Shown here: in pieces, positions 289 through 59,923 of the stretch
How the letters are laid out: each line of letters starts with the position of its first letter
How positions within the stretch are numbered: position 1 is the stretch's first letter
Translations under genes and position numbers: made by a program
Notes under the pieces: model-generated
Databases searched by the model: none
Told to the model about the DNA's origin: nothing
The model's input: the letters and a program-made list of their open reading frames with translations, nothing else
Virus record (IMG/VR): IMGVR_UViG_3300042350_003801
Length of the DNA stretch: 64,000 bases
Reading direction: 5' to 3' (one strand)
Source of the DNA: a virus
Lineage: Duplodnaviria > Caudoviricetes

Positions 289-355
289 TATTTATTATTA
301 AGACTTTCATCACAAAACAGGCAAAACTATGTGAAAGAATTTGGCTAAAAGCCAA

Positions 356-428
356 CGACCAATAGGAGATTTGAACTCCTGTAACCTACTAGACAGGTAG
401 GTGTCCTAGACCACTAGACGAATTGGCC
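356..428 (-). tRNA. trnD: tRNA-Asp(GUC)
   Basis: Cloverleaf GGCCAAT...ATTGGTC-G, anticodon arm CCTAC-CTGTCTA-GTAGG, T loop TTCAAAT; CCA not encoded. Confidence 0.95.
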
Positions 429-430
429 AT

Positions 431-1420: not shown

Positions 1421-1705
1421 CGAGAACGGCGTGACTCGAACACGCGACTTACTGCTTAGCTTACCACTACGGATTTCCCCGCCATTTCTGTTTGTGGTCT
1501 GGACCATCTCTTCATCTTATCTTACGACTTAGATGCTTCCCGTATGGCCTCTACACGTTCAGGATTTCTCCCGCTTCGCTCGGGATTGCCATAGTCTTAC
1601 GACTTTAGGGTTCCCCGAATTTGAGAAGTTACATTTATGAAGTTTCCCTCGTAAAGCTCCTATTTTCGAAGGCAGTTGTTCTAAATCCAACTGAACTACG
1701 TTCCC
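1421..1705 (-). tRNA. trnR: tRNA-Arg(UCU), intron-containing (exons 1669-1705 and 1421-1459)
   Basis: Joined exons give GGGAACG-TA-GTTC..GAAC-A-ACTGC-CTTCTAA-GCAGT-AAGTC-GCGTG-TTCGAGT-CACGC-CGTTCTC-G. Confidence 0.9.
1460..1668 (-). mobile_element. group I self-splicing intron, 209 nt, no ORF
   Basis: 5' splice after U, terminal G; P AAAUUCGGGGAA, Q GGCAAUCCCGAGC, R GUAGAGGCCAUACGG, S AAGAGAUGGUCC; P7 GGCCAU/AUGGUC; P1 CUU|C..GGAG with U-G pair; P10 UAG/CUA. Confidence 0.9.
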
Positions 1706-1837
1706 ATAATAAAACCCGAAATAACTCGGATTATGGTTTATTTAGTAAGAATCAAAAACACCCCAAATAACACAAAACGCTCCGGACGCTGAACCGGCAC
1801 AGTTAAGCACCTGAACACCTATTACAATAAGTCAGGC

Positions 1838-2101
1838 TTATTCATTCACTTCATCAGACAAATCAAAGGTTTTTCTAAACATATTGCGCCCATAAAAGAA
1901 AAGCTGTATCATTAAAACATCAAGAAGAACGGTAACAATGAATGCACCGGCAAGAGAGGATACATTATTATCGTTTACATAAACACTAACCGAGGAACTA
2001 ACTCCTTGGTCTAAAAAATAAAATAGTGGAATCCAAAGTAGAATAGCAAGAAATCGTTGTAGAATAATCATCGTTAAAATGCATAGGACGTGAATTTCCA
2101 T
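1838..2101 (-). CDS. small membrane protein (true start probably the ATG of MIILQR)
   Basis: ORF with two hydrophobic segments downstream of a promoter. Confidence 0.5.
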   Translation of the reverse strand: MEIHVLCILTMIILQRFLAILLWIPLFYFLDQGVSSSVSVYVNDNNVSSLAGAFIVTVLLDVLMIQLFFYGRNMFRKTFDLSDEVNE

Positions 2102-2168
2102 TCACCCGTTAAGAATAGCACAAAACCACAAGAACGGGGAAAACGTGTGTCAGTTCGTCAATTGTCAC

Positions 2169-2234
2169 AAAAAGAGCCCCGAAGGGCTCCAGTCAACTCA
2201 ACAACAGGAAACAGTTGGGCGCTTATCCCCAACT
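2169..2234 (-). ncRNA. candidate 66-nt small RNA
   Basis: -10 TATTCT at 2240-2245, hairpin AGUUGGG/CCCAACU, then terminator GGAGCCC-UUCG-GGGCUC-U5; no ORF. Confidence 0.55.
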
Positions 2235-2286
2235 CATTAAGAATAACACAAAACCACCAAAACGGGGAAAGCGTGTGCCAGTTTGA

Positions 2287-2727
2287 TTACTGGCTAATTT
2301 CTTCAAGATGTGGCGGAACAAAAGAAGCCCGAATACCCATAACGCCGCCCAACTCACTTTGAGCCTCGCTATTATCGGGTCTGAACTCATAATACACAGC
2401 ATTCTCAATAAGAACCCGCTCGGGTCTATACCGATACTCATCAAGTATCTGCTGGTTCTTCATTTTAGGTTTATGCATTCTCTTTTCTTCTCGTTCATAC
2501 TGCTCTATCGCAGAATCAACATCGTATTTTACTCTGCTGTTTAACAATTCAGGCGTTTTGATGATGTATTCATTTAACTCTTTCGGAGAGTATTTAGTGT
2601 TTCTTTGAATCTGGTCATTAAGAACCCAAACTTTCTCTTCAGATAAACCGGTGCAACGGGAAATACAGAAAACAATCGTTGTTAATGTCAGAGATATAAC
2701 TGTCCATCTAATAGCTTCTTTTTTCAC
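2287..2727 (-). CDS. hypothetical protein with N-terminal signal or TM segment
   Basis: 146-aa ORF in an operon. Confidence 0.65.
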   Translation of the reverse strand: MKKEAIRWTVISLTLTTIVFCISRCTGLSEEKVWVLNDQIQRNTKYSPKELNEYIIKTPELLNSRVKYDVDSAIEQYEREEKRMHKPKMKNQQILDEYRYRPERVLIENAVYYEFRPDNSEAQSELGGVMGIRASFVPPHLEEISQ

Positions 2728-2730
2728 CTA

Positions 2731-3261
2731 TCAATAAGAGCCAGGTTCTTGAAACACAGAGAGAAATACAGTTCCCTTCTTATAAAGTGGTAGAAGTTTA
2801 TCTCTTAGATCAATGTTATAAAGTCTTACACAACCTAGTGTGGGGTATAGTGGTTGTCTGGGTGCCCAGGCTCCTGGCCAAAATGCGGCAGATCCGCCAC
2901 CGTGAACCATAAGACCGGCTCTACCGTGACGAGCTTCCTGCCCTTCTAGTTCTACCATATCAAATGACATCCACCCATATGCCATTAGGGTGCGATCATA
3001 GCGGGGGTAATCGCCGTAAGTTGCATAATCATTGTAAAGCTGTCCTAGCTTATAAAGGCCAGGAACAGTATCACTTCCAGTTGCAGAAAATAGATAATCG
3101 CTACCTTGACCGCGAGCAAGAGCGGGGATTTCCCATAGAAGATTACCATAGAAATCGTATGCCTTTGCAGTCTCTACAATATCATTAACGACGATGTGAG
3201 TATCGCCAGGTTTAAATCCGAATTGTTTTGGACTTTTTCCAGGACCTACAGGTTTAGTCAT
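2731..3261 (-). CDS. L,D-transpeptidase (YkuD-like) domain protein
   Basis: MVHGGG...TLGCVRLYN His/Cys motif. Confidence 0.7.
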   Translation of the reverse strand: MTKPVGPGKSPKQFGFKPGDTHIVVNDIVETAKAYDFYGNLLWEIPALARGQGSDYLFSATGSDTVPGLYKLGQLYNDYATYGDYPRYDRTLMAYGWMSFDMVELEGQEARHGRAGLMVHGGGSAAFWPGAWAPRQPLYPTLGCVRLYNIDLRDKLLPLYKKGTVFLSVFQEPGSY

Positions 3262-3292
3262 AATTGCAGCATATTGAACTGTAATTATTTAT

Positions 3293-3790
3293 TTAATATG
3301 GATTGCCAGTGAAAACGACAAATAGAACAAAAAGAAAAACCGCAAATCCAATACCAGCAAAAATATTAAATTTAATTATTGGCACAAAAACAAATCCAAT
3401 AAAAAGAAAAATGCCACCCAAAGTGCCAGCAATTCCCAAAGTAATGCCCAATGCGATAAGAACTTTAGAGAAAAAAGGTTCCCATAGAAATTCAAGAATA
3501 TCCCAAATCTCTTTAAAAACAAAGACTATTCCGGTTCCACAAAAATTTAGGAATTTTTTACAAAGTCTAAGAAGGCCTTTACTTTTATCTCTAGGTGGAT
3601 TCTTATACTCACTAAAAATTCTAAAGTTTTCAATAGCAGTAGGATCAGCAGAATCTAGCCACTCTAAAAATTTCTCAGAGTCATAAGAGTTAATTTTTTG
3701 CCAATCTTCTTCAAACTCTTCAAAGTAGTCTGGATTATTTTTCAGGAATGCAGTTGTGATTGGTCTGGTGTGTTTCATTGGTGGTTTCAT
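3293..3790 (-). CDS. hypothetical membrane protein
   Basis: Hydrophobic C-terminal half. Confidence 0.6.
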   Translation of the reverse strand: MKPPMKHTRPITTAFLKNNPDYFEEFEEDWQKINSYDSEKFLEWLDSADPTAIENFRIFSEYKNPPRDKSKGLLRLCKKFLNFCGTGIVFVFKEIWDILEFLWEPFFSKVLIALGITLGIAGTLGGIFLFIGFVFVPIIKFNIFAGIGFAVFLFVLFVVFTGNPY

Positions 3791-3854
3791 AATAATACGG
3801 GCAAAGGGCTTCTCAAAAGAGAAACCCTTAACATTCCTAAATCAACCGTTTGAA

Positions 3855-4319
3855 TCAGTTAAGAACTTCAAGACGAACATCGGCAAGACCACTGGAGGTT
3901 ACTCCAAGATGACTTGCAATGCCTTGTCCAAGGTCTACAATACGGCCACCAACATAAGGTCCACGGTCATTTACTCTTGCAACGGCACTACGACCATTGT
4001 TAAGATTAGTGATGCGAACTCTCGTGCCAAATGGCAGGCTACGGTGAGCAACAGTAAAGGTTCCCGGTCGGTAAGTTTCACCATTAGCAGTGCGATTACC
4101 ATAGAATCCAGGACCATACCAACTTGCAACACCAGTGTATGCATAGGCAAGATTATGTTGAACCGAATGATTCTCCTCCATCATCCATTTATTCGTGTTA
4201 ATAGAAGTTTCAGGAGAAACATCTATAGAATAAGAACTAGAAGAAATTGCTCGTGCCTGAACTGGGGCTAGCAGAACTGCACCGGCAAAAAGGATTGAGA
4301 TAGTTTTGTTAATTTGCAT
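3855..4319 (-). CDS. rlpA: RlpA-like lytic transglycosylase (DPBB_1)
   Basis: GVASWYG..RTANGE..AHRSLPFGT.VRITNL.NG.S..RVNDRGPY..GRIVDL; signal peptide. Confidence 0.92.
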   Translation of the reverse strand: MQINKTISILFAGAVLLAPVQARAISSSSYSIDVSPETSINTNKWMMEENHSVQHNLAYAYTGVASWYGPGFYGNRTANGETYRPGTFTVAHRSLPFGTRVRITNLNNGRSAVARVNDRGPYVGGRIVDLGQGIASHLGVTSSGLADVRLEVLN

Positions 4320-4329
4320 TTAATTGAAT

Positions 4330-4398
4330 AGAACTCGACATCCAGGCTTGAGTACCGTCGCAACGCCCCCGTTCTAAAAGGCAGCACTCCCTGGCTCT
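4330..4398 (-). promoter_or_regulatory. structured 5' leader of rlpA
   Basis: Nested stems AGAGC/GUUCU, CAGG/CCUG, GAGUGC/GUACUC, GCC/GGC ending about 10 nt before ATG. Confidence 0.5.
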
Positions 4399-4476
4399 AG
4401 TAACACTTATTTCATTATGAAAAAGTATTTAGGATGAAATTAAACATCCTAATTAAGGATAACACAGTTTTAAGGC

Positions 4477-4623
4477 TTATGGGGCAGCAGTGGCCAGTTG
4501 TGGTTCCGACCACTCTTCCACGATTGCTTTTGTGTAATCAGGAAGATTTTTGTCCGTGAGATGTTTACAGCGTTCAGAAACCCACTTCTTGTTGGCTTCT
4601 TCAATTTTTTGTTCGTTGTTCAT
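4477..4623 (-). CDS. small hypothetical protein (48 aa, MNNEQKIEEANKKWV...)
   Basis: Translated by eye; below the ORF-track cut-off. Confidence 0.45.
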   Translation of the reverse strand: MNNEQKIEEANKKWVSERCKHLTDKNLPDYTKAIVEEWSEPQLATAAP

Positions 4624-4836
4624 AGTTATTTAAAATCTACAATGCAATCAAGAACGACGAAAATTTGGCAGTAACTACCAAACATAAACCGATTCCAAAA
4701 ATCAAGGCACTAACTCCTGCTGCAATTTTAATAAATTCCATCATTTGTGGTTAAAGGCATCACTAACATACATCATTTATTGGCCGATGGACCGTTCAGT
4801 GGACACTTCTTAAACTGTCCATAAATAGAAAGAAAA

Positions 4837-5295
4837 ATGTGGCTGTATAATAATCAAGTTCTTGAAACTGTTCCAGAAGGAATGGAGGGGTTTGTATATC
4901 TTATTGAGAACTTAACAAACAATAAGAAATACATCGGTAAAAAGCACTTCTGGGAAAGGAGAAAGGACCGTAAGACGGGTAGAAGAAAGACAAAAGAGAG
5001 CAGTTGGCAATCTTATATGGGGAGTTGCGATGAATTGATTGCCGATTATAAAGAACTAGGAAGGGTAAACTTCAGGAAAACTATTCTTTATCTTTGCCCG
5101 CATAAGAAATCAATGTCTTATTTTGAAACATTAGAGCAGTTCAAAAGAGATGTTATTATGCGCGAAGATTATTACAATACTAATGTTGAAGGCAAGTTTT
5201 TCACTTCAGAGAAAGACAACATTTACAGTAAGGTTTTAATATCTGAAACGGTTCAAGACCAATCTTCAAACATAAATCCACTTGCAGTTGAATAG
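4837..5295 (+). CDS. GIY-YIG nuclease family protein
   Basis: GFVYLIENLTNNKKYIGKK motif; CATAAATA late promoter upstream. Confidence 0.8.
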   Translation: MWLYNNQVLETVPEGMEGFVYLIENLTNNKKYIGKKHFWERRKDRKTGRRKTKESSWQSYMGSCDELIADYKELGRVNFRKTILYLCPHKKSMSYFETLEQFKRDVIMREDYYNTNVEGKFFTSEKDNIYSKVLISETVQDQSSNINPLAVE

Positions 5296-5696
5296 TGAAT
5301 CTTTGTTATTCCATTATGTTTAAGAAACAAAGTACATAGAGGACACGGGCGGGAGTTTCGGAGTTTATTACCACCGTGGCCTCCAACTCTTGCGATAATA
5401 ATTGTATCACCTTCCTCTTTCGCTCTTATTGTGGCCAAAATTTCGGAATGCAAAAACTGCTTTTTTGAATACACGTCATTATCGTGAATGCGACTTGCAA
5501 GAATAGCATACTTCTCTTGAATAGGATGAGTCTTTCTATCATAATTACAGGCAGCGGAGATAATTTTTCTTTTTTTAAGAAGTATACTTCCAACTCGTTT
5601 TTTAGAAGGAGATGCCATTGCAACCGAAATTGCACTATTAAGAATCTCCGGTTTCATTTGCGACGGGACTGCAATAATATCGCTCAAAAGATACAT
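5253..5696 (-). CDS. cytidine/dCMP deaminase-like zinc protein
   Basis: HSE and RPCPLC zinc-binding motifs. Confidence 0.8.
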   Translation of the reverse strand: MYLLSDIIAVPSQMKPEILNSAISVAMASPSKKRVGSILLKKRKIISAACNYDRKTHPIQEKYAILASRIHDNDVYSKKQFLHSEILATIRAKEEGDTIIIARVGGHGGNKLRNSRPCPLCTLFLKHNGITKIHYSTASGFMFEDWS

Positions 5697-15996: not shown

Positions 15997-17223
15997 CTAT
16001 TTAGACTTTTTCTTGCTCTTTCTATAATTGGTCAAGAAATTTGTAATCTCTTTTGTATTCGTCATTTTCATTGCATACTTACGAAGAGAATCCGTTCCAA
16101 CTAAACGCTGGTCAGATGGAACACCAGAAACATCGGTCCACTCGGTAATGTCTTTAATCCAAGACTTAAACATTATATTATCTTCTGTGACACAAATAAC
16201 ATAATTTGGCCCACGTCTTGTAATTCTACCAACTAGACCTGTATTGAGATTCTCTACAATGTCTTCAATGTTAAAAATATTATTTTGGTAGTATTGCTCT
16301 TTTAGATTTTCATAATCAAGTTTAGGGGCGATTTTCCACATCTCTGCAACCGTTCCATCACCTTCAAGGCCACGTTGAACAGCGTGAAACAAATTCTCTA
16401 CTTCTTTAGGTGGCATTGTTCTGGGAATACCGGCCCGAAACTCAGTGAAGTCATCAGAAACTGCAGCTTTTCTTAATTTTGCAGATGACATACTTGTTAT
16501 ATCATCCGTTGAATCTGGATCTCTATTACCAGCAGAAATGACTTTAATTTCTTCAAAATTATAAATATCTTTTTCTTTATTGTGCTTATTTGCAAGTCGT
16601 TCAAATTCTGATACCCTATCGGCTCCTACAATAATATTAACTTTTTTAAAGCCATCTTCATAGATATTTCTTAGAACTTCATAAATGGTTGTTAATGAAC
16701 GGTCATTAACAATTTTCTTTTTAAATTCCGGGAACATCTTCCGCATATATTTAATCTTCTGCGGAGGATTCAAAGGATCTGTAGTGGTATTCTGCTGTCT
16801 TGAGGGATAGATTCTTAGTTCTCCCCCGGATGCAACCTGTTTTGCCTTATCAAAAACTTTTTTATGTCCAATTGTCGGTGGATTGAATCTTCCCAGGACG
16901 ATCGTGATTACCTTTTCGGTTTCCACTTCTGGTGCAGATTCCTGTTCTTTGGGGGCGGTAATGCCAGGGCGAATGCCGCCTTGAGCCGGTTTAACTTTCG
17001 GGGCTTCTCTTTCTGCTGCTGGATTTATTTTGGCTTCCGGTTTTTCAGGTGATGGAGACTTTTTCTGAACAAACTGAAGGTCACCACTTACTGTTTGGGC
17101 AATAAGTTTCCCGGCACGGTCAACCCAGCCACCATGCTTGTTTGAAATTAGGCCGAGTCTGGAGGCTTTTTCACTTGCTCGGCTTCCACGGTATTCTAGT
17201 AGAAATTCTAGAAATGTCTTCAT
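15997..17223 (-). CDS. cytidylyltransferase-like (HxGH) nucleotidyltransferase
   Basis: GRFNPPTIGH, VGADR, SAGNRD, MSSAKLR; N-terminus MKTFLEFLLE. Confidence 0.85.
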   Translation of the reverse strand: MKTFLEFLLEYRGSRASEKASRLGLISNKHGGWVDRAGKLIAQTVSGDLQFVQKKSPSPEKPEAKINPAAEREAPKVKPAQGGIRPGITAPKEQESAPEVETEKVITIVLGRFNPPTIGHKKVFDKAKQVASGGELRIYPSRQQNTTTDPLNPPQKIKYMRKMFPEFKKKIVNDRSLTTIYEVLRNIYEDGFKKVNIIVGADRVSEFERLANKHNKEKDIYNFEEIKVISAGNRDPDSTDDITSMSSAKLRKAAVSDDFTEFRAGIPRTMPPKEVENLFHAVQRGLEGDGTVAEMWKIAPKLDYENLKEQYYQNNIFNIEDIVENLNTGLVGRITRRGPNYVICVTEDNIMFKSWIKDITEWTDVSGVPSDQRLVGTDSLRKYAMKMTNTKEITNFLTNYRKSKKKSK

Positions 17224-37219: not shown

Positions 37220-37606
37220 TCAAGAACCATTGAAGATTCGTTCAAGTTTGTTCTTTGCCTCAGATACAGTGCCAACGTAACCCATAGTTGAACTAATCTT
37301 CTCCTCGTTATATCGGGTGTTCTCACGAGAAGCAACATATTTATTGTGCATTTTAATAAGTTCAGCATCCTCTAATTCGGACATAGTAAGAACATCCTCT
37401 TTATTAATAACGAAAATACCTTCATTACCAATCTTAATCCAAGGTTCTACTGAATATGCAGGACCACGTTTGGACTTAACAAATGAAATAGTAACAGGAT
37501 GGTATAAAAGGATAACTTCCTTACCATTTTCTTCTGTTGGACTTACTTGAGCAAAGAATTCTTCACCATTCTTTAACTTTACAACTGCATAAAATTCTTC
37601 TTCCAT
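37220..37606 (-). CDS. conserved hypothetical protein
   Basis: FYAVVKLKNGEE.FA. Confidence 0.7.
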   Translation of the reverse strand: MEEEFYAVVKLKNGEEFFAQVSPTEENGKEVILLYHPVTISFVKSKRGPAYSVEPWIKIGNEGIFVINKEDVLTMSELEDAELIKMHNKYVASRENTRYNEEKISSTMGYVGTVSEAKNKLERIFNGS

Positions 37607-40307: not shown

Positions 40308-40332
40308 TCGTTTTAGTTCGTCTTATATACTA

Positions 40333-40470
40333 TTTAATATTATTGAATAATAGTGGTTTATCACTTTTGACAAAGCGGAGCGTAGCAGACTTTAAAGAGT
40401 TTGTCAATAAGTAGAAATACTAAGTCAGCAAACATTGACAATACCATACAAGGGCTTGACAAAATCAAGA
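40333..40470 (+). repeat. 137-bp promoter block, copy 2 (inverted), upstream of the plus-strand island
   Basis: Matches the reverse complement of 37069-37205, including the core ACTTTTGACAAAGCGGAGCGTAGCAGACTTTAAAGAGTTTGTCAATA. Confidence 0.9.
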
Positions 40471-40599
40471 AGGTGTGGTAAGGTTACAGGAGTTAAATTT
40501 CTTCTCTTAACTATGGCCACCCTTTCGTCACTAGACCACTAACAAATTCTTCACGATGCCTTATTTTATAAGCCAACTCAAAAGAACCTTTTTCTGAGA

Positions 40600-40806
40600 G
40601 TGATGGCTCGTTTAACTGGCGGGAGAGTCGTTTTACATCAAAATCTTTGGGGAGAAGTTGGACAGACCATTGCATATAAAATGAACAACCTTCCAGAAGA
40701 CAACCTGTTTGCTTATGTGTATTTTTCAACTTCTGTTGGGCCAATGGCTCTATTACCTGACGGCAGTTGCACAAAGAGCTACATTAAACGTTGGAGGTTT
40801 ATGTGA
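40600..40806 (+). CDS. hypothetical protein
   Basis: ORF track; first ORF after the promoter block. Confidence 0.45.
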   Translation: MMARLTGGRVVLHQNLWGEVGQTIAYKMNNLPEDNLFAYVYFSTSVGPMALLPDGSCTKSYIKRWRFM

Positions 40807-40842
40807 TGAATTTATTATTGTAACATTGATGAATTTTAAATT

Positions 40843-41574
40843 ATGATTAACCTATACGCAACAAACGGTTTAATGTTCTGGTCTGGACGAGAAATTAAAT
40901 ACCGTAATTTTATTAAACAAACCTTTACCGATGAAATAGAAGCATTGCTTCGTTCAGAAAATCGTGCCTGGCAATTCTTTGAGATAGAAGCGCCTTTATT
41001 GATTCCCAGAGAATTGATAAATTCAAATTATACAAATGAGGATATTTGGGTTCAAGAGAATAACGAAGAAGAATTGGTTCTTCGTCCTGAAACCACGCCT
41101 TCTTCATATGCTTATGCTTGTCATATGCTTAATAGCAATATGATACTACCTCCATTCTGCGTTCTACAATCTGGTAAATCATTTCGCAGAGAACAAGATC
41201 AAGTTAGTAAGAATATGCGATTAAAGGAATTTTATCAACAAGAGTTTCAGTGCATTTATGCTGCTGACACTCTTAATGACTATCAAGAAAAAGTTCTCGA
41301 ACCTTTGAGAAAAATTTTTGAGAAAATAATTGGTAAGTCAACAAGAATTGTTGAATCGGATAGACTTCCTTCATATTCCGTGAAAACTATGGATATTGAA
41401 GTTGATAATGGTGATAATGGTGATAAATGGATGGAATTATGCTCCATATCAAAAAGAACAGATTTTCCTCAAAAAGTTAAATTCAATACGAAAAATGGCT
41501 CCAATGAAAAAGAAATGCTTGTATTGGAAATTGCCATTGGTTTAGATAGATGTGTTTACAATTATTTTAAATGA
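40843..41574 (+). CDS. minimal class II aminoacyl-tRNA synthetase catalytic domain, GlyRS-like
   Basis: LRPET, GKSFRRE..RLKEF.Q.EFQ (motif 2), WMEL.SIS.RTDF, EIAIGLDR (motif 3); no anticodon-binding domain. Confidence 0.8.
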   Translation: MINLYATNGLMFWSGREIKYRNFIKQTFTDEIEALLRSENRAWQFFEIEAPLLIPRELINSNYTNEDIWVQENNEEELVLRPETTPSSYAYACHMLNSNMILPPFCVLQSGKSFRREQDQVSKNMRLKEFYQQEFQCIYAADTLNDYQEKVLEPLRKIFEKIIGKSTRIVESDRLPSYSVKTMDIEVDNGDNGDKWMELCSISKRTDFPQKVKFNTKNGSNEKEMLVLEIAIGLDRCVYNYFK

Positions 41575-41927
41575 TGGACCTACAACACTTTTATCATTAC
41601 CTAACACCAGAAAAAATCTTATCCGAAAAATCTTTCAGCGATAGCGTATGGTTACACGCTAGCTCGGGGATTTTTTCCGTATCGTATAGCGATTATCTGA
41701 AGGCTTGGTCAGAACACGATTCCATTCATTACCTATTAAACCTTCCTTTTAACTTGAACGGCGAAAGAAAAGTCGCCTTTGTTGAAGCACATTGCGGAGT
41801 TGGATGGGCTCCTTATGGTGATGAATGTAGTCTCAATGTGCGCGATAAAATCAATTTTTTAATGCCAAAGAAATTTGGTAGATTAAAAATTCTTGAAACC
41901 GCTGAACAATTACGAGAACTTTATTAA
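41571..41927 (+). CDS. hypothetical protein
   Basis: ORF track. Confidence 0.55.
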   Translation: MMDLQHFYHYLTPEKILSEKSFSDSVWLHASSGIFSVSYSDYLKAWSEHDSIHYLLNLPFNLNGERKVAFVEAHCGVGWAPYGDECSLNVRDKINFLMPKKFGRLKILETAEQLRELY

Positions 41928-41928
41928 A

Positions 41929-42801
41929 ATGACACAAATTCAAAAGCCAATGCTTGCCGGGAACTATGATGCTTCTAAAGCAACGTTCCCGTATATTGCC
42001 ACACCAAAGATTGATGGCATTCGTTTTCTTATGGTTAATGGTGTTGCCGTCTCCCGCACATTTAAGCCTATTCGGAACAATTATCTGCAAAAAGCCTTAA
42101 GCGAAACTCTTCCCGATGGAGTGGATGGAGAAATCACAGTTGGAGATACCTTTCAATCTTCTACTAGTGGTGTAATGAGTATTGAAGGTGAGCCAGATTT
42201 TAAGGTTTGGCTTTTTGACTATGTTGACCCAAGTCAAGATGAAATTCTTCCATATTACTTAAGAATTCTTAACTTTCCAACGTTTCCCAATACTGGGCAG
42301 TATATTCTCTTATCTGGAACAACAATTAATAGTCAAGAAGAACTTGATGATTACGAAGAAATTTGTCTTGAAGATGGCTATGAAGGCATAATGCTCCGAG
42401 ACCCAATGGGAACTTATAAGTTTGGTCGTTCTACCGTAAGAGATAACATTCTTCTTAAGGTTAAACGGTTTCTAGACGATGAAGCAGTTGTTATTGATAT
42501 TGAAGAAAAGATGCACAATGAAAATGAGGCTCAAAAAGATGCCTTTGGTAGAACGAAAAGGTCTTCTTCAATTCTTGGTCTAGTTGGGGCAAACACAACG
42601 GGAACCCTTATTGTAGAAAATAAAGAGGGGCAAGTGTTTGGTATTGGTTCGGGTTTAAATGATCTAATGCGTGATGAAATTTGGAACAATAGAGAGAACT
42701 ACCTAGGCCGTCTTGTTAAGTATAAGTATTTTCCCCAAGGGGTTAAAGAATTACCAAGGCATCCTGTTTTTCTTGGCTTTCGTGACGAGGATGATTTATG
42801 A
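41929..42801 (+). CDS. ATP-dependent DNA ligase (compact form)
   Basis: PKIDGIR, YEGIMLR, LLKVK, F.IGSG, PRHPVF. Confidence 0.92.
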   Translation: MTQIQKPMLAGNYDASKATFPYIATPKIDGIRFLMVNGVAVSRTFKPIRNNYLQKALSETLPDGVDGEITVGDTFQSSTSGVMSIEGEPDFKVWLFDYVDPSQDEILPYYLRILNFPTFPNTGQYILLSGTTINSQEELDDYEEICLEDGYEGIMLRDPMGTYKFGRSTVRDNILLKVKRFLDDEAVVIDIEEKMHNENEAQKDAFGRTKRSSSILGLVGANTTGTLIVENKEGQVFGIGSGLNDLMRDEIWNNRENYLGRLVKYKYFPQGVKELPRHPVFLGFRDEDDL

Positions 42802-43819
42802 AATTTTATGATTTTGTTGTTAACTTACCGCCATCTATAGGGCATTTAAAAATTATTTTAGATAATAGAAAACGTGGGATAAACCGAAAAGACTTTCAAT
42901 ACTTTATTGCTTTTAGTGAACACGATGCGATTCATTACTTATGTGATCTTGGATTCAGTAAAGATGAAGAACTTATTGTGGCTAGGATTGAAGATGTTCT
43001 AGAGTGTGGATTTGGAATTTGGAGAAACAATACAGTTAAAGAAAGTTTGAGAGAAGTTGAATATAAAATTCCAGATTGGTTGACACATTCTATAATAAAT
43101 GAAGTTTCCAATAAAATTAGGAAATATTACTATGAAAAAGCCTAAAGAAAAAATCAAAGTCCAAAAGTCTCAAATTTATTATCTACACACTGAATTTTAT
43201 AAACTTGAAGATCTTAAATCTACTATTGAAACTTTGCTTTATGAAGGGTGGTATGGTTTAACAATTGGAAAAGACTATCACGATGACCCCGAAAATTTTG
43301 ATCCTTATGTTACCATTTATTGTGATAGGGATGAAACGGAACAAGAGTTCAACCAAAGAGTTAAACTTTATGAGATTCATAGAGATAATTTAAAAAAAAG
43401 TAAAATAAAAAGAGAAAGAGAAAAAGTTGAGCTAGAAAAAAGAGAACGACAACTTTTAGAAAAATTAAAATTAAAATACGAACCTATAAATAGCGTTAAA
43501 AATGACTATGACATTTAACGGCACTATGAATTTTGATGAATAATTTGAACTACCAGATTATTCTTATTATGGCCTCACTTTGAAAAATACTTGCTCTGCT
43601 TGTCCTGAGCAGTATGATGTATATTATGAAGATATTCTATGTGGTTATATGAGACTTCGGCACGGTTACTTTAGAGCCGAATATTATAAGACTCCAGATG
43701 ACTATGGTAAAATTGTCTATGATTGTGAACCAAATGGTGATGGTATATTTTTGGGTGAAGAACGAGAAGAACATCTAAAGAAAGGTGCCGAGGCAATTAT
43801 AAAACAAATGAGGTGGTGA
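42798..43819 (+). CDS. three hypothetical proteins (42798-43145, 43099-43518, 43580-43819)
   Basis: ORF track, co-oriented. Confidence 0.55.
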
Positions 43820-57227: not shown

Positions 57228-58208
57228 TTAAGAATAGCATAAACCTTTACAGGTTTTTTCTGGAGCAAAAGTCGCTAGAGATTTCTTTGTATTTTTCTCT
57301 ATTCTTTCAATAATTTCACCGCAGGCAGTTTCAATTTCTTCTTCTGTGAACTTAACTCTTGGTTCATTCAGACGAGTTGCCAGTTGTGAATCCATTCCAC
57401 AGATTCTCATTGGAGAGGGGTAAAACGGAACATCCCGCTCAATGATATGAAACACATCTGGATAAGAAATATTAACTTTATGGGTTCCAGTAATAAAGAC
57501 TGATGCATCTTGATTTACTGCTCTTGCAATATGCTGACCACAACTATCACAACCGATAAAATAATCTGCTGCCTTAATGACCCCCGCCCATTCTCTTAGA
57601 TTTGGGTCTGGCAATGGAATGAATGTCTTACCATCATAGAAATCTTTTTCTCCCATAAAGATGATGTTGTAATTTTTTGAAAGAATGGATATAATCTGCT
57701 CAAATGACTTATCTGAAAGTGAGCGATAAGTTGGGTCAAAGACACCCATCGGACAACGATTGGCACTTCTACCATAAGGCTGAATAACGATTGTTTTTGA
57801 CTTTTTTTGATGCTCCTTTGCCTGGTAAACAACTTCGTGACCTTTAACAATCTCTAAATCTGAAAGATTTAGAGATAATTCTGGTAGGTCAGAATGGTCG
57901 GTTGTTCCATTGATCTCTTGGTCAAATGCTTCCATCAAAGAGATTTCTTGACGGTAATATGCCGGAATTTTATAAGGTTCTGGCGTGATAATATTTGTGG
58001 CATCCCAGAAATATCTTTCAAATGTTCCTTTTGTTTCAGGATTGAAGGTTCTATTTTGAAGTTCTGAAATGCCCCAGGTCATAAAGTCCCAACCGTGAAC
58101 CATTACATACCATTCTTTGTTTGAGTGAAGTTGATGATATTTTAGTAGGGCCGGAATTGCAGTGATTGCTCTCCCCAATCCTCCGTCAATAATGATAATC
58201 GTGCTCAT
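57228..58208 (-). CDS. GT9 (heptosyltransferase-like) glycosyltransferase
   Basis: DGGLG..I.A.PA, IVIQPYG, FIGCDS..QH.A.A. Confidence 0.7.
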   Translation of the reverse strand: MSTIIIIDGGLGRAITAIPALLKYHQLHSNKEWYVMVHGWDFMTWGISELQNRTFNPETKGTFERYFWDATNIITPEPYKIPAYYRQEISLMEAFDQEINGTTDHSDLPELSLNLSDLEIVKGHEVVYQAKEHQKKSKTIVIQPYGRSANRCPMGVFDPTYRSLSDKSFEQIISILSKNYNIIFMGEKDFYDGKTFIPLPDPNLREWAGVIKAADYFIGCDSCGQHIARAVNQDASVFITGTHKVNISYPDVFHIIERDVPFYPSPMRICGMDSQLATRLNEPRVKFTEEEIETACGEIIERIEKNTKKSLATFAPEKTCKGLCYS

Positions 58209-59923
58209 TGATATAGAACTCTAAATGATTTTTTAATTTTTTTCTTTTGAACGATATAATTTCCAATCACGAGATAGTCAATATCTAAATTTAAAAATGA
58301 CTCAACTGCGTGTTTTGGTGATTCAACAATAGGTTCGCCATTATCATTGAATGATGTATTTAGAACTACAGGAATACCTGTTTTTTCTTTAAGTTTTTGA
58401 AGTAAAAGATTTGTCTGAGGATGAAGTTCTTGATTGACTGTTTGAATTCTACAAGTATAATCAACGTGTGTAATTGCCGGAATAATGTGTGCCTTGTCTC
58501 CTCTTACTGTCAATGAATACAACATATAAGGAGACTTATAATCTTCATAAAAGTATTCATTGAGATGTTCTTCCAGAATGATACCAGCAAAAGGTCTCCA
58601 ATATTCCCGGTGCTTCACTCTTGAATTGAGAATGTCTTTGTTTTCTTTTCTGGTTGGGCTCATTAAGATTGAACGAGATCCCAGTGCTCTTGCGCCAAAT
58701 TCAGAACGATTTTGAAACCAAGCGATGATTTTATTTTGTGCAATATAATCAGCGGCTAAAGAACATAGTTCCTCAAAGTCTTCATATTTTGTGAATGTGA
58801 CTTTATGTTGGGTAAGTTCTTCTTCTATTTCTTCATTAGAGTATTCTTTACTTAGAAGTGCAATATTTTCGGGAAGTTCAATAGTTTCATTATTTTGAAA
58901 TGCTCCAAAAAGGGCGGCACCAAAATGAAGTCCAGTATCACTCGGGTATGGAGGAATGTGCATATTTTGCGCGAATTGATTATTACGAACTGCACTATTT
59001 CCAAGAACATTCAAAAATGACCCACCGGCAAGACATAGATTGTCTTCAAGATAAGACTTTGTTTTAAGTTCACCGACATAATCAACAAGAGCAGTTTCAA
59101 AGTTTTTTTGGAGAATATATGCCTGTTCGTCTGCGGTTTTTAGAATGGAGTGGGACTTGGAATCAAATACAACATAAGGAACCTCATTGTAATGAATGTC
59201 TGATGAAAGTTGATATTCTTTATACTCTTCTTTGTATGGAAGATTTCCATAGGCGGAAAGACCCATTATCTTGCCGTCCCAACTTTCTCTATACTTTTCA
59301 TCAAAGGCATCAATGGTTTTTCTGACTTTCTTGCAGTATATTTTATGTGATGCATGGTGATAATATGAACCAAAATTATTAGTTCCTGGAATACCATTGA
59401 AGAATCTAAAGATTCCTTTTTCTTTGTTAAAGTATCCAATTGAATTAGTTTCTGCCGTTAGGGAATCTTCTTGATTATAAGAATATATTACCGAACCTGC
59501 ACCATCTAGAGTTATAAATGTTCCTTCATTAAAATCCGATGAAAAAACTGATGAGGCAGCGTGAGATAGATGATGCGAAATTATTTTGAAGGTAGCATTA
59601 GGAAACAGAGATTTGATTTTATCCTCAATGATTCCTTCTTTGAGTTGACAGTAAAAGTATTCCAGGCACATTGATGGAATACAAATCAGATGGATATCTT
59701 CTGCAGTGATATTACCCTCTTGGAGGCAGTATTCAATGGAGTTGATGGGGAAGTTGCCATCGTGCTTGATGCGGGTTAAACGCTCTTCAGAGATGCTACA
59801 GATGTGCTTCCCGTTGATGAGAAGCGTTGCCCCGGCATCGTGAACCCAAGTTAGATTTTGATGGTCATCATATGATTGGTTTGCATCCCAATCAAAGGCA
59901 CCATAAAGACCAAGAATAATCAT
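58205..59923 (-). CDS. carbamoyltransferase (NodU/CmcH family)
   Basis: HDAGA, SEERLTR.KH, HH.SHA, LDGAG, GK.MGLSAYG, E.GARALG.RS, LNTSFN..GEPIVE. Confidence 0.93.
   Translation of the reverse strand: MIILGLYGAFDWDANQSYDDHQNLTWVHDAGATLLINGKHICSISEERLTRIKHDGNFPINSIEYCLQEGNITAEDIHLICIPSMCLEYFYCQLKEGIIEDKIKSLFPNATFKIISHHLSHAASSVFSSDFNEGTFITLDGAGSVIYSYNQEDSLTAETNSIGYFNKEKGIFRFFNGIPGTNNFGSYYHHASHKIYCKKVRKTIDAFDEKYRESWDGKIMGLSAYGNLPYKEEYKEYQLSSDIHYNEVPYVVFDSKSHSILKTADEQAYILQKNFETALVDYVGELKTKSYLEDNLCLAGGSFLNVLGNSAVRNNQFAQNMHIPPYPSDTGLHFGAALFGAFQNNETIELPENIALLSKEYSNEEIEEELTQHKVTFTKYEDFEELCSLAADYIAQNKIIAWFQNRSEFGARALGSRSILMSPTRKENKDILNSRVKHREYWRPFAGIILEEHLNEYFYEDYKSPYMLYSLTVRGDKAHIIPAITHVDYTCRIQTVNQELHPQTNLLLQKLKEKTGIPVVLNTSFNDNGEPIVESPKHAVESFLNLDIDYLVIGNYIVQKKKIKKSFRVLYQ

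Follow-up and report, generated by a model that had tools for sequence, protein, structure and literature searches.

The 64,000-nucleotide stretch of phage DNA analysed here, termed the window (IMG/VR virus record IMGVR_UViG_3300042350_003801; Duplodnaviria; Caudoviricetes), carries at positions 40843-41574 a gene for a 243-residue protein that resembles the catalytic core of a glycyl-tRNA synthetase (GlyRS). The nearest relative of this protein by sequence, profile and predicted structure is the α2-type GlyRS. Judged from its sequence, it is a member of an uncharacterised “aminoacyl-tRNA ligase-related protein” family of phages and Alphaproteobacteria, and the gene almost certainly encodes a real, intact enzyme. 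We tentatively favour the reading that the protein is an anticodon-blind, probably glycine-specific tRNA ligase, for which we infer dimerization, glycine specificity and tRNA as the acceptor. The stand-alone GlyRS-like core of 243 residues that the original prediction, made from the DNA alone, had placed at this site is borne out by the open reading frame (ORF), the Pfam family PF00587, the NCBIfam model PRK04173 and alignments to PDB entries.

Sequence motifs and predicted structure of the core

The start codon, an ATG at 40843, is right, as the N-terminal MxxLY of the product lines up with those of the homologues. Residues 69-238 match the class II core of the G, H, P, S and T synthetases (PF00587); the score of 57.9 bits exceeds the cutoff of 29.3 (E = 1.8e-15), and by curated score, motifs 1-3 and fold the protein is a class II core (PF00587, subclass IIa). 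Its top NCBIfam match is the GlyRS model PRK04173 (E = 2.8e-16), followed by HisRS (1.4e-8). The scores for the canonical GlyRS equivalogs remain below the curated cutoffs, at 59.4 versus 312 bits for PRK04173 and 29.7 versus 243.3 bits for TIGR00389, and the HisZ equivalog is not reached (19.4 versus 271.65 bits). Sequence search against the PDB revealed the bacterial α2 GlyRS 8u2q, 8sld and 8t5n as top matches, with E values of ~1e-11 and alignments spanning the RPET, SFRxE, EFxQxE and W.EL...RTDF segments. The resemblance of motifs 2 and 3 and the W.EL...RTDF segment to α2 GlyRS, which had been noticed originally, thus recurs in the PDB alignments, and motif 1, which had gone unmentioned, is present too. 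The protein also lacks an anticodon-binding domain, as predicted: anticodon-binding families such as PF03129 gave no Pfam match at E ≤ 1, and the C-terminus lies 7 residues beyond the motif 3 arginine. Every residue of the family signatures ETT, SFRxE, F.Q.EFQ, SDRLP.YS, E..S.S.R.D and E.A.G.DR is present in the window protein.

The gene and its motifs are listed below, with conservation counted over 212 unique phage and bacterial family sequences, together with the residue mapping onto T. thermophilus GlyRS taken from the family profile-to-PDB alignment (HMMER).

40843..41574 (+), GlyRS-like 243-residue minimal class II core gene; ORF call, stop codon within the coordinates
40972..41007 (+), motif 1, residues 44-55, F.EIEAPLL.P, a strand and the predicted dimer interface; E49 in 205/212, P51 in 196/212
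41074..41133 (+), LRPETT strand and the next helix, residues 78-97; E83 in 211/212, T84 and T85 in 212/212
41155..41262 (+), motif 2, two strands and a loop, residues 105-140; R115, E117, F130, Q132, E134 and Q136 all in 212/212
41356..41406 (+), signature SDRLPxYS...T.D.E, residues 172-188, equivalent by alignment to the L.HYA..T.DIE strand of GlyRS; P176, Y178 and D184 in 212/212, S172, D173 and R174 in at least 203/212
41428..41466 (+), W.E..S.S.RTDF, residues 196-208; E198, S201, R205 and D207 in 212/212
41515..41571 (+), motif 3, residues 225-243, with E229, A231, G233-L-D-R236 and a short C-terminal helix; E229 in 212/212, R236 in 211/212, A231 in 209/212
Equivalent residues, window protein and T. 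thermophilus GlyRS: E83 = E188, R115 = R220, E117 = E222, E134 = E239, E229 = E359
Changed or motif positions: Q136 for E241, A231 for S361; R236 is the motif 3 arginine

The W.E..S.S.RTDF segment is common to α2 GlyRS, where alignment to 8u2q and 1b76 gives W.EL.GIA.RTDF, and the counterpart of motif 3 in N. equitans GlyRS is VLELSFGVDR by profile alignment. In T. thermophilus GlyRS, the residues E188, E239 and E359 reportedly form an acidic pit that holds the glycine ammonium group, a description attributed to Arnez et al. in 1999. The counterparts of these three pocket glutamates are nearly invariant in the family, which suggests that the substrate is glycine or comparably small. The motif 2 loop, which touches the acceptor end in class II enzymes, is equal in length to that of GlyRS and highly conserved in the family.

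The AlphaFold2 model of the window protein, built from a 64-sequence alignment, has a predicted local distance difference test (pLDDT) score of 95.1 and a predicted template modelling (pTM) score of 0.92. It displays the class II fold, an antiparallel β-sheet flanked by helices, and is closed by a helix of residues 234-242. Structural similarity search against the PDB using Foldseek gave α2 GlyRS for all of the top 15 matches, with ProRS next. An independent ranking by VIA-align placed N. equitans GlyRS first (Z 23.8, root-mean-square deviation 2.2 over 231 residues) and human GlyRS second (Z 21.9), the deviations of the two being 2.2-2.4 over 227-231 residues. Below them are ProRS, Bll0957, ThrRS and SerRS (Z 19-20.5), HisRS and HisZ (~18), PylRS (16.7), AsnA (14.3) and GenX (13.9). 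Altogether, 68 PDB representatives reach a Z of at least 8, and the best 50 of the 68 are all class II synthetases or known paralogues. Searched against the PDB, the family profile matches GlyRS at 4.6e-19, ProRS at 1.3e-6, SerRS at 1.6e-5 and PylRS at 2.8e-5.

Compared to α2 GlyRS (T. thermophilus 1ATI/1B76, Mycobacterium 8SLD/8U2Q, N. equitans 5Z5E and human 2PME), the window protein shares the class IIa fold and motifs 1-3, the RPET, SFRxE, EFxQxE, W.E...RTDF and E..G.DR segments, the three pocket glutamates, both catalytic arginines and, by prediction, the motif 1 dimer. However, it is much reduced: its 243 residues cover residues 12-385 of N. equitans GlyRS, with ~140 insertion residues missing in addition to the C-terminal anticodon-binding domain. 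It further differs in its low identity (~20%), in the family substitutions Ser361 to Ala and Glu241 to Gln, and in scoring 59 versus 312 bits.

The protein is predicted to form a homodimer through motif 1. The modelled interface consists of residues 46-55 of motif 1 and residues 2-18 of the N-terminal arm, the runs share at least 94% of contacts, and the partner pLDDT is at least 84. The dimer model scored 0.80, compared to 0.23 for the best control; among proteins of solved structure, 20 of 30 pairs and 1 of 23 single chains attain this score mark, and the pass may partly stem from likeness to solved class II dimers.

Distribution of the family in phages and bacteria

A word-indexed search among proteins of 133-426 residues yielded 1,986 homologues at E ≤ 1e-3, of which the best 120 are 230-325 residues long, many of them from contigs 100-570 kb long. 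Run exhaustively against 1.84 billion representatives, phmmer gave 159 clusters at E ≤ 1e-10, and the best 150 of the 159 are all at most 352 residues long. No relatives or fusions of 427-2000 residues were found, by a search that is weak evidence on this point. The phage relatives are 39-95% identical to the window protein over 95-100% of its length, whereas cellular GlyRS are only ~20% identical over the aligned core; the proposal that the gene is not host-derived therefore stands as far as recent copying is concerned. Cyanobacteria possess the α2β2-type GlyRS.

Several members (P0121, P0122, P0129, P0132, P0139, P0087 and P0092) are longer, at 306-352 residues, and contain a variable insert of 65-90 residues just before LRPETT, a site that we take to be that of the first insertion domain in canonical GlyRS. 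No Pfam domain was detected in this insert, and some of these longer members also have C-terminal tails.

Most of the family is found in jumbo and huge phages. Its cultured carriers are jumbo phages, namely Sinorhizobium phage Phosso (61% identity), Xanthomonas phage XbC2 (50%) and those of Brevundimonas (~41%) and Caulobacter (~39%), and two unannotated “uncultured phage” records of ~635 kb carry a member as well. Existing annotations are as varied as “hypothetical protein” and “serine-tRNA synthetase”. Prokaryotic genomes were also scanned, which revealed chromosomal members with 52-58% identity in Rhizobium, Shinella, Labrys, Phenylobacterium, Caulobacter, Devosia and Pseudaminobacter. The NCBI name for such proteins is “aminoacyl-tRNA ligase-related protein”, and the bacterial members so named are 52-62% identical to the window protein. 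The chromosomal members (loci L091-L168 in Rhizobium, Phenylobacterium, Devosia, Caulobacter, Shinella and Labrys) are surrounded by housekeeping genes, such as gltBD and those for a lytic transglycosylase, MlaD and a D-Ala-D-Ala carboxypeptidase; in Rhizobium there are at least two contexts, beside gltBD or beside MlaD/GGDEF/PBP5-type genes. In the family tree, which is unrooted, the bacterial sequences form one clade with a support of 94, nested among phage sequences.

One protein assigned to a gammaproteobacterial metagenome-assembled genome (MAG; locus L089) is identical to a protein on a 455-kb viral contig (L012), and its contig is therefore probably a mis-binned phage fragment. The short contigs of “Alphaproteobacteria MAG” origin at L090 and L129 may likewise be mis-binned.

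Truncated synthetase paralogues are already known as a kind, and we found no description of one that is GlyRS-derived, so small and phage-centred. A literature search for a GlyRS-like paralogue or a truncated phage synthetase gave no experimental or comparative account, and only generic annotation was found in the papers on the XbC2, Brevundimonas and Caulobacter phages.

Linkage to tRNA genes and candidate functions

We scanned 80 viral loci with their 10-kb flanks using ARAGORN, of which 72 were left after dereplication at 90% identity, and compared them with random placement inside the same ±10 kb in 2000 trials. A tRNA gene lies within 500 nt of the core gene in 24 of the 72 loci, compared to 12.8 ± 2.6 by random placement (maximum 23), and within 2 kb in 38, compared to 21.4 ± 2.8 (maximum 31). 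Almost all of the tRNA genes, 369 of 371, are co-oriented with the core gene. Within 500 nt, tRNA-Gly is the commonest type (10 of 51 near versus 29 of 320 far; Fisher p = 0.045), and tRNAs with a CUA anticodon are also enriched (6 of 51 versus 6 of 320; p = 0.002). In the tree, the window protein groups with the proteins of L008, L006 and L007, with supports of 95-97, and all three of these are encoded inside arrays of 14-18 tRNAs. Moreover, in relatives with 80-84% identity an RNase P protein gene follows the core gene at 1-3 kb downstream and a class I synthetase gene precedes it at 5 kb upstream, and the core gene of Phosso is near genes for CysRS, a peptidyl-tRNA hydrolase and an RNA ligase. 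The RNase P protein-like genes (PF00825) lie at 11770-12069 in L085 and 13747-14052 in L087; L087 also encodes a 322-residue class I protein of the TrpRS/TyrRS type (PF00579) at 4362-5330, and an adenylosuccinate synthetase is encoded in these phages as well.

On these grounds we propose that the enzyme would be a catalytically competent homodimer consisting only of the class II catalytic core of the α2 GlyRS lineage, which would bind ATP along with glycine, or some other amino acid of very small size, and make the aminoacyl-adenylate. The amino acid would then be moved to the 3' end of a tRNA through contacts with the acceptor end only, as in an anticodon-blind minimal GlyRS. We lean towards glycine as the amino acid that is activated, and give tRNA as the acceptor close to an even chance. 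Charging by the acceptor stem alone, one of the activities originally suggested, gains indirect support from the linkage to tRNA genes in related phages.

Several observations weigh against this proposal. Two GlyRS positions are changed and fixed in the family, Ser361 to Ala231 (209/212) and Glu241 to Gln136 (212/212), which makes glycine specificity uncertain. The window protein has no domain beyond the core for holding a tRNA, and, to our knowledge, none of the similarly sized stand-alone class II cores that have been characterised (HisZ, AsnA, EpmA and the amino acid:carrier-protein ligases) charges a tRNA. The enrichment of tRNA-Gly is weak, and it comes from loci that are not phylogenetically independent; two thirds of the phage loci, as well as the bacterial homologues, are without tRNA linkage, and no tRNA is found near the window gene itself, the sole one in the window being a tRNA-Asp 40 kb away. 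Finally, we found no biochemical work on any family member.

The nearest functional analogies are PylSc, the catalytic fragment of PylRS, and the viral mini-AlaRS, both of which have extra tRNA-binding elements. PylSc is a class II core of ~270-290 residues that charges its tRNA without reading the anticodon, and its natural partner is a CUA suppressor tRNA. It (D. hafniense, 2ZNI) matches the window protein in fold with a Z of 16.7, and in the Phosso-like lineage the core gene likewise adjoins a tRNA(CUA). However, PylSc belongs to a different subclass, has a large hydrophobic pocket, and carries two elements that the window protein lacks, a C-terminal tail and an additional helix bundle for tRNA binding. 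The mini-AlaRS of Tupanvirus is a virus-encoded synthetase stripped of accessory domains (PMC10036535). It differs in belonging to another synthetase family, keeping a tRNA-recognition domain, being much larger than 243 residues and serving in a eukaryotic host. Gly-tRNA is consumed by at least one phage enzyme: Mom of phage Mu uses Gly-tRNA-Gly to hypermodify DNA (PMC13219725), so phages can use Gly-tRNA beyond translation. That paper, on tRNA-dependent DNA momylation, does not mention the mini-GlyRS family.

In Phosso and eight related viral contigs, the sole tRNA gene within ±10 kb has a CUA anticodon and lies 53-1875 nt upstream of the core gene on the same strand. These loci (L001, Phosso 1582-4753; L020-L025, L027 and L029) have the syntenic order CysRS, a 200-residue protein, tRNA(CUA) and the mini-synthetase. 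The eight CUA-linked loci form one clade in the tree with Phosso close by, and therefore the CUA linkage is essentially one evolutionary event. In a second CUA case, L053, the tRNA is on the opposite strand. The tRNA(CUA) genes of the Phosso-like loci have a common G73 discriminator, whereas almost all of the phage tRNA-Gly genes listed have U73, the known bacterial tRNA-Gly discriminator (PMC9976931). The enzymes of the CUA clade have REI(V/I)Q in place of REQDQ in the motif 2 loop. A crude ORF-coverage test of TAG recoding in the flanks of the CUA-tRNA-linked phages gave no TAG-specific gain. A natural suppressor pair of mini-synthetase and tRNA(CUA) is thus a lead rather than evidence.

Taken to its furthest, the proposal would make the protein the smallest natural aminoacyl-tRNA synthetase, a dimer of ~240-residue subunits that reads only the acceptor end and serves as a portable charging module for phage tRNAs, and that in Phosso-like phages forms a natural orthogonal pair with tRNA(CUA), placing glycine or a small residue at UAG; we regard this as a rather long shot. 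If a tRNA is charged, the family would provide a natural test of whether a bare class II core and an acceptor stem (the “operational RNA code”) suffice for specific aminoacylation, would offer a compact anticodon-blind enzyme for genetic-code engineering, and would show how large phages free their tRNA sets from host synthetases. If something else is glycylated, there would be a new modification pathway in phages and rhizobia. Either way, ~2,000 database proteins labelled “glycyl-tRNA synthetase” or “aminoacyl-tRNA ligase-related” would gain a function.

The main rival, possible but unlikely in our judgement, is an amino acid:X ligase, in which the glycyl- or small aminoacyl-adenylate would be passed to a non-tRNA acceptor such as a carrier-protein or coenzyme A thiol, a protein side chain (as by EpmA on EF-P), a metabolite or a nucleic-acid base. 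This mode of action is known from stand-alone class II cores that have been characterised, among them the amino acid:carrier-protein ligases (Bll0957, Bll6282 and Atu2573), which are stand-alone cores of ~300 residues without tRNA-binding domains, truncated SerRS homologues of Alphaproteobacteria. They occur in Rhizobiales, some prefer glycine, and their genes adjoin those of their carrier proteins. The structural match of the window protein to Bll0957 (3mey) is high, with a Z of 20.5 over 217 residues; in addition, the bacterial clade, which includes Rhizobium, Phenylobacterium and Devosia, sits amid housekeeping genes with no tRNA nearby, and neither the window nor most phage loci have adjacent tRNAs. 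However, these ligases descend from methanogen-type SerRS, whereas the family profile is far nearer to GlyRS (4.6e-19) than to SerRS (1.6e-5). No conserved protein neighbour, such as a carrier protein, was found in the 72 phage or 80 bacterial loci, in which ORFs of at least 50-70 residues were covered, and this absence of a partner gene weighs against a carrier-protein system. The embedding in co-oriented tRNA arrays and the RNase P protein neighbour point to tRNA instead. The window protein is neither a SerRS-derived amino acid:carrier-protein ligase nor HisZ.

A nucleotide-signal synthase, which would make diadenosine tetraphosphate (Ap4A) or related dinucleoside polyphosphates and so alter host stress signalling in infection, is quite improbable. 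The ATP-binding residues are invariant, Ap4A synthesis has been reported for human GlyRS, and the human GlyRS-Ap4A complex 2zt5 is among the structural matches. Nevertheless, the pocket glutamates, needless for a pure condensation of ATP, are as invariant as the ATP site, the neighbourhoods contain no hint of nucleotide signalling, and PADLOC gave no match.

We give an equally small chance to a non-catalytic binder, a regulatory or accessory subunit comparable to HisZ with HisG or to the GlyRS-like accessory subunit of the mitochondrial DNA polymerase gamma (Pol gamma), which in the window might relate to the adjoining replication and repair genes or sequester host tRNA or GlyRS. Fold matches include the Pol gamma accessory subunits 5c53_C (Z 18.7) and 8d33_B (Z 17.4) as well as HisZ (Z 18.1), and the window gene lies between uvsW/uvsY and the DNA ligase gene. 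Pseudo-enzymes such as HisZ and the Pol gamma accessory subunit have lost their catalytic residues, whereas R115, E117, R236 and the amino-acid pocket are invariant here in 211-212 of 212 sequences; the score for HisZ is 19 bits against a cutoff of 272, and the replication-gene context is peculiar to the window phage and not family-wide. HisZ, AsnA and EpmA/GenX resemble the window protein as stand-alone class II cores without anticodon domains (Z 18.1, 14.3 and 13.9), but derive from the HisRS, AspRS/AsnRS and LysRS lineages, with catalysis lost in HisZ and GlyRS motifs in none.

A decaying, functionless remnant of a full-length GlyRS gene, to which the missing anticodon-binding domain and canonical GlyRS insertions might point, is effectively refuted, as the same architecture with conserved ends and an invariant active site recurs in ~2,000 phage and bacterial homologues of matching length, 210-290 residues, an identical gene is present in several metagenomes, no longer relatives were found and the downstream ORF encodes an unrelated helical protein; the gene is thus not the broken fragment that the original prediction had considered.

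The gene within the window phage

The window is phage DNA with T4-like genes, including those for UvsW, UvsY, a gp43-type DNA polymerase, a gp41-type helicase, SbcC/gp46 and ribonucleotide reductase, in addition to a gp23-type major head protein, a tail-tube protein and a carbamoyltransferase. Its UvsW is nearest to cyanomyoviruses, with 62% identity to Synechococcus phages B3 and B23 and ~57% to numerous marine phages of Synechococcus and Prochlorococcus. In DNA sequence the phage records contain nothing close: megablast of the 10 kb around the core gene against them gave no match. An identical protein, in an unchanged gene order, is encoded on metagenomic contigs of up to 250 kb and recurs in several metagenomes. 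No homologue of the core was found in the hundreds of Synechococcus and Prochlorococcus phage records of the collection, of which 377 named Synechococcus matched UvsW, and therefore the gene is an accessory acquisition in the lineage of the window.

The core gene is the first of a rightward block and is followed by a 118-residue ORF, a small ATP-dependent DNA ligase gene and many ORFans. It would be expressed as part of a rightward unit originating within the divergent intergenic region. The surrounding features are as follows.

40308..40842 (no strand), divergent intergenic region of 535 nt that separates the leftward late/replication genes from the rightward unit, with several TTGACA words
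40600-40806, small ORF of 67/68 residues in the intergenic region; called by other pipelines, a 67-residue gene in the identical contigs
41571..41927 (+), downstream 118-residue ORF; ATGA overlap with the stop of the core gene
41893-42801 (+), small ATP-dependent DNA ligase, 290-302 residues (PF01068 and PF14743; phrog_114)
42798-43145 (+), 115-residue ORF
37220-37606 (-), 128-residue ORF beside uvsW
355-429 (-), tRNA-Asp(GTC), the one tRNA gene called with confidence in the whole window
58205-59923 (-) and 15997-17223 (-), genes of auxiliary type for a Nol-like carbamoyltransferase and a cytidyltransferase

In the 535-nt region, sites matching the promoter consensus are not above chance (12 versus 11 ± 4 expected), ARAGORN relaxed to -ps85 found no tRNA, and Rfam gave nothing better than E = 1.9. 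The defence-system models of PADLOC gave no match.

The 118-residue ORF has no Pfam, PHROG or PADLOC match. Its homologues make up only 18 clusters, all in the phage lineage of the window, and it is not beside the family members of other phages. Its model is all-helical with a pLDDT of 84, and the best PDB match has a Z of 4.0. A split gene, with this ORF as the detached anticodon-binding domain, was rejected because the protein is all-helical, matches no profile, reaches only Z 4.0 and is restricted to one lineage. The 118-residue and 115-residue ORFs, which flank the DNA ligase gene, are paralogous (BLASTP E = 1e-7) and share an SEHD.IHYL motif. The start of the ligase is ambiguous, being either the TTG at 41893 or a later codon that gives 290 residues as in the identical contigs. 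For the 128-residue ORF beside uvsW, an Sm-like domain (PF16243) is recorded in an identical metagenomic contig (L169).

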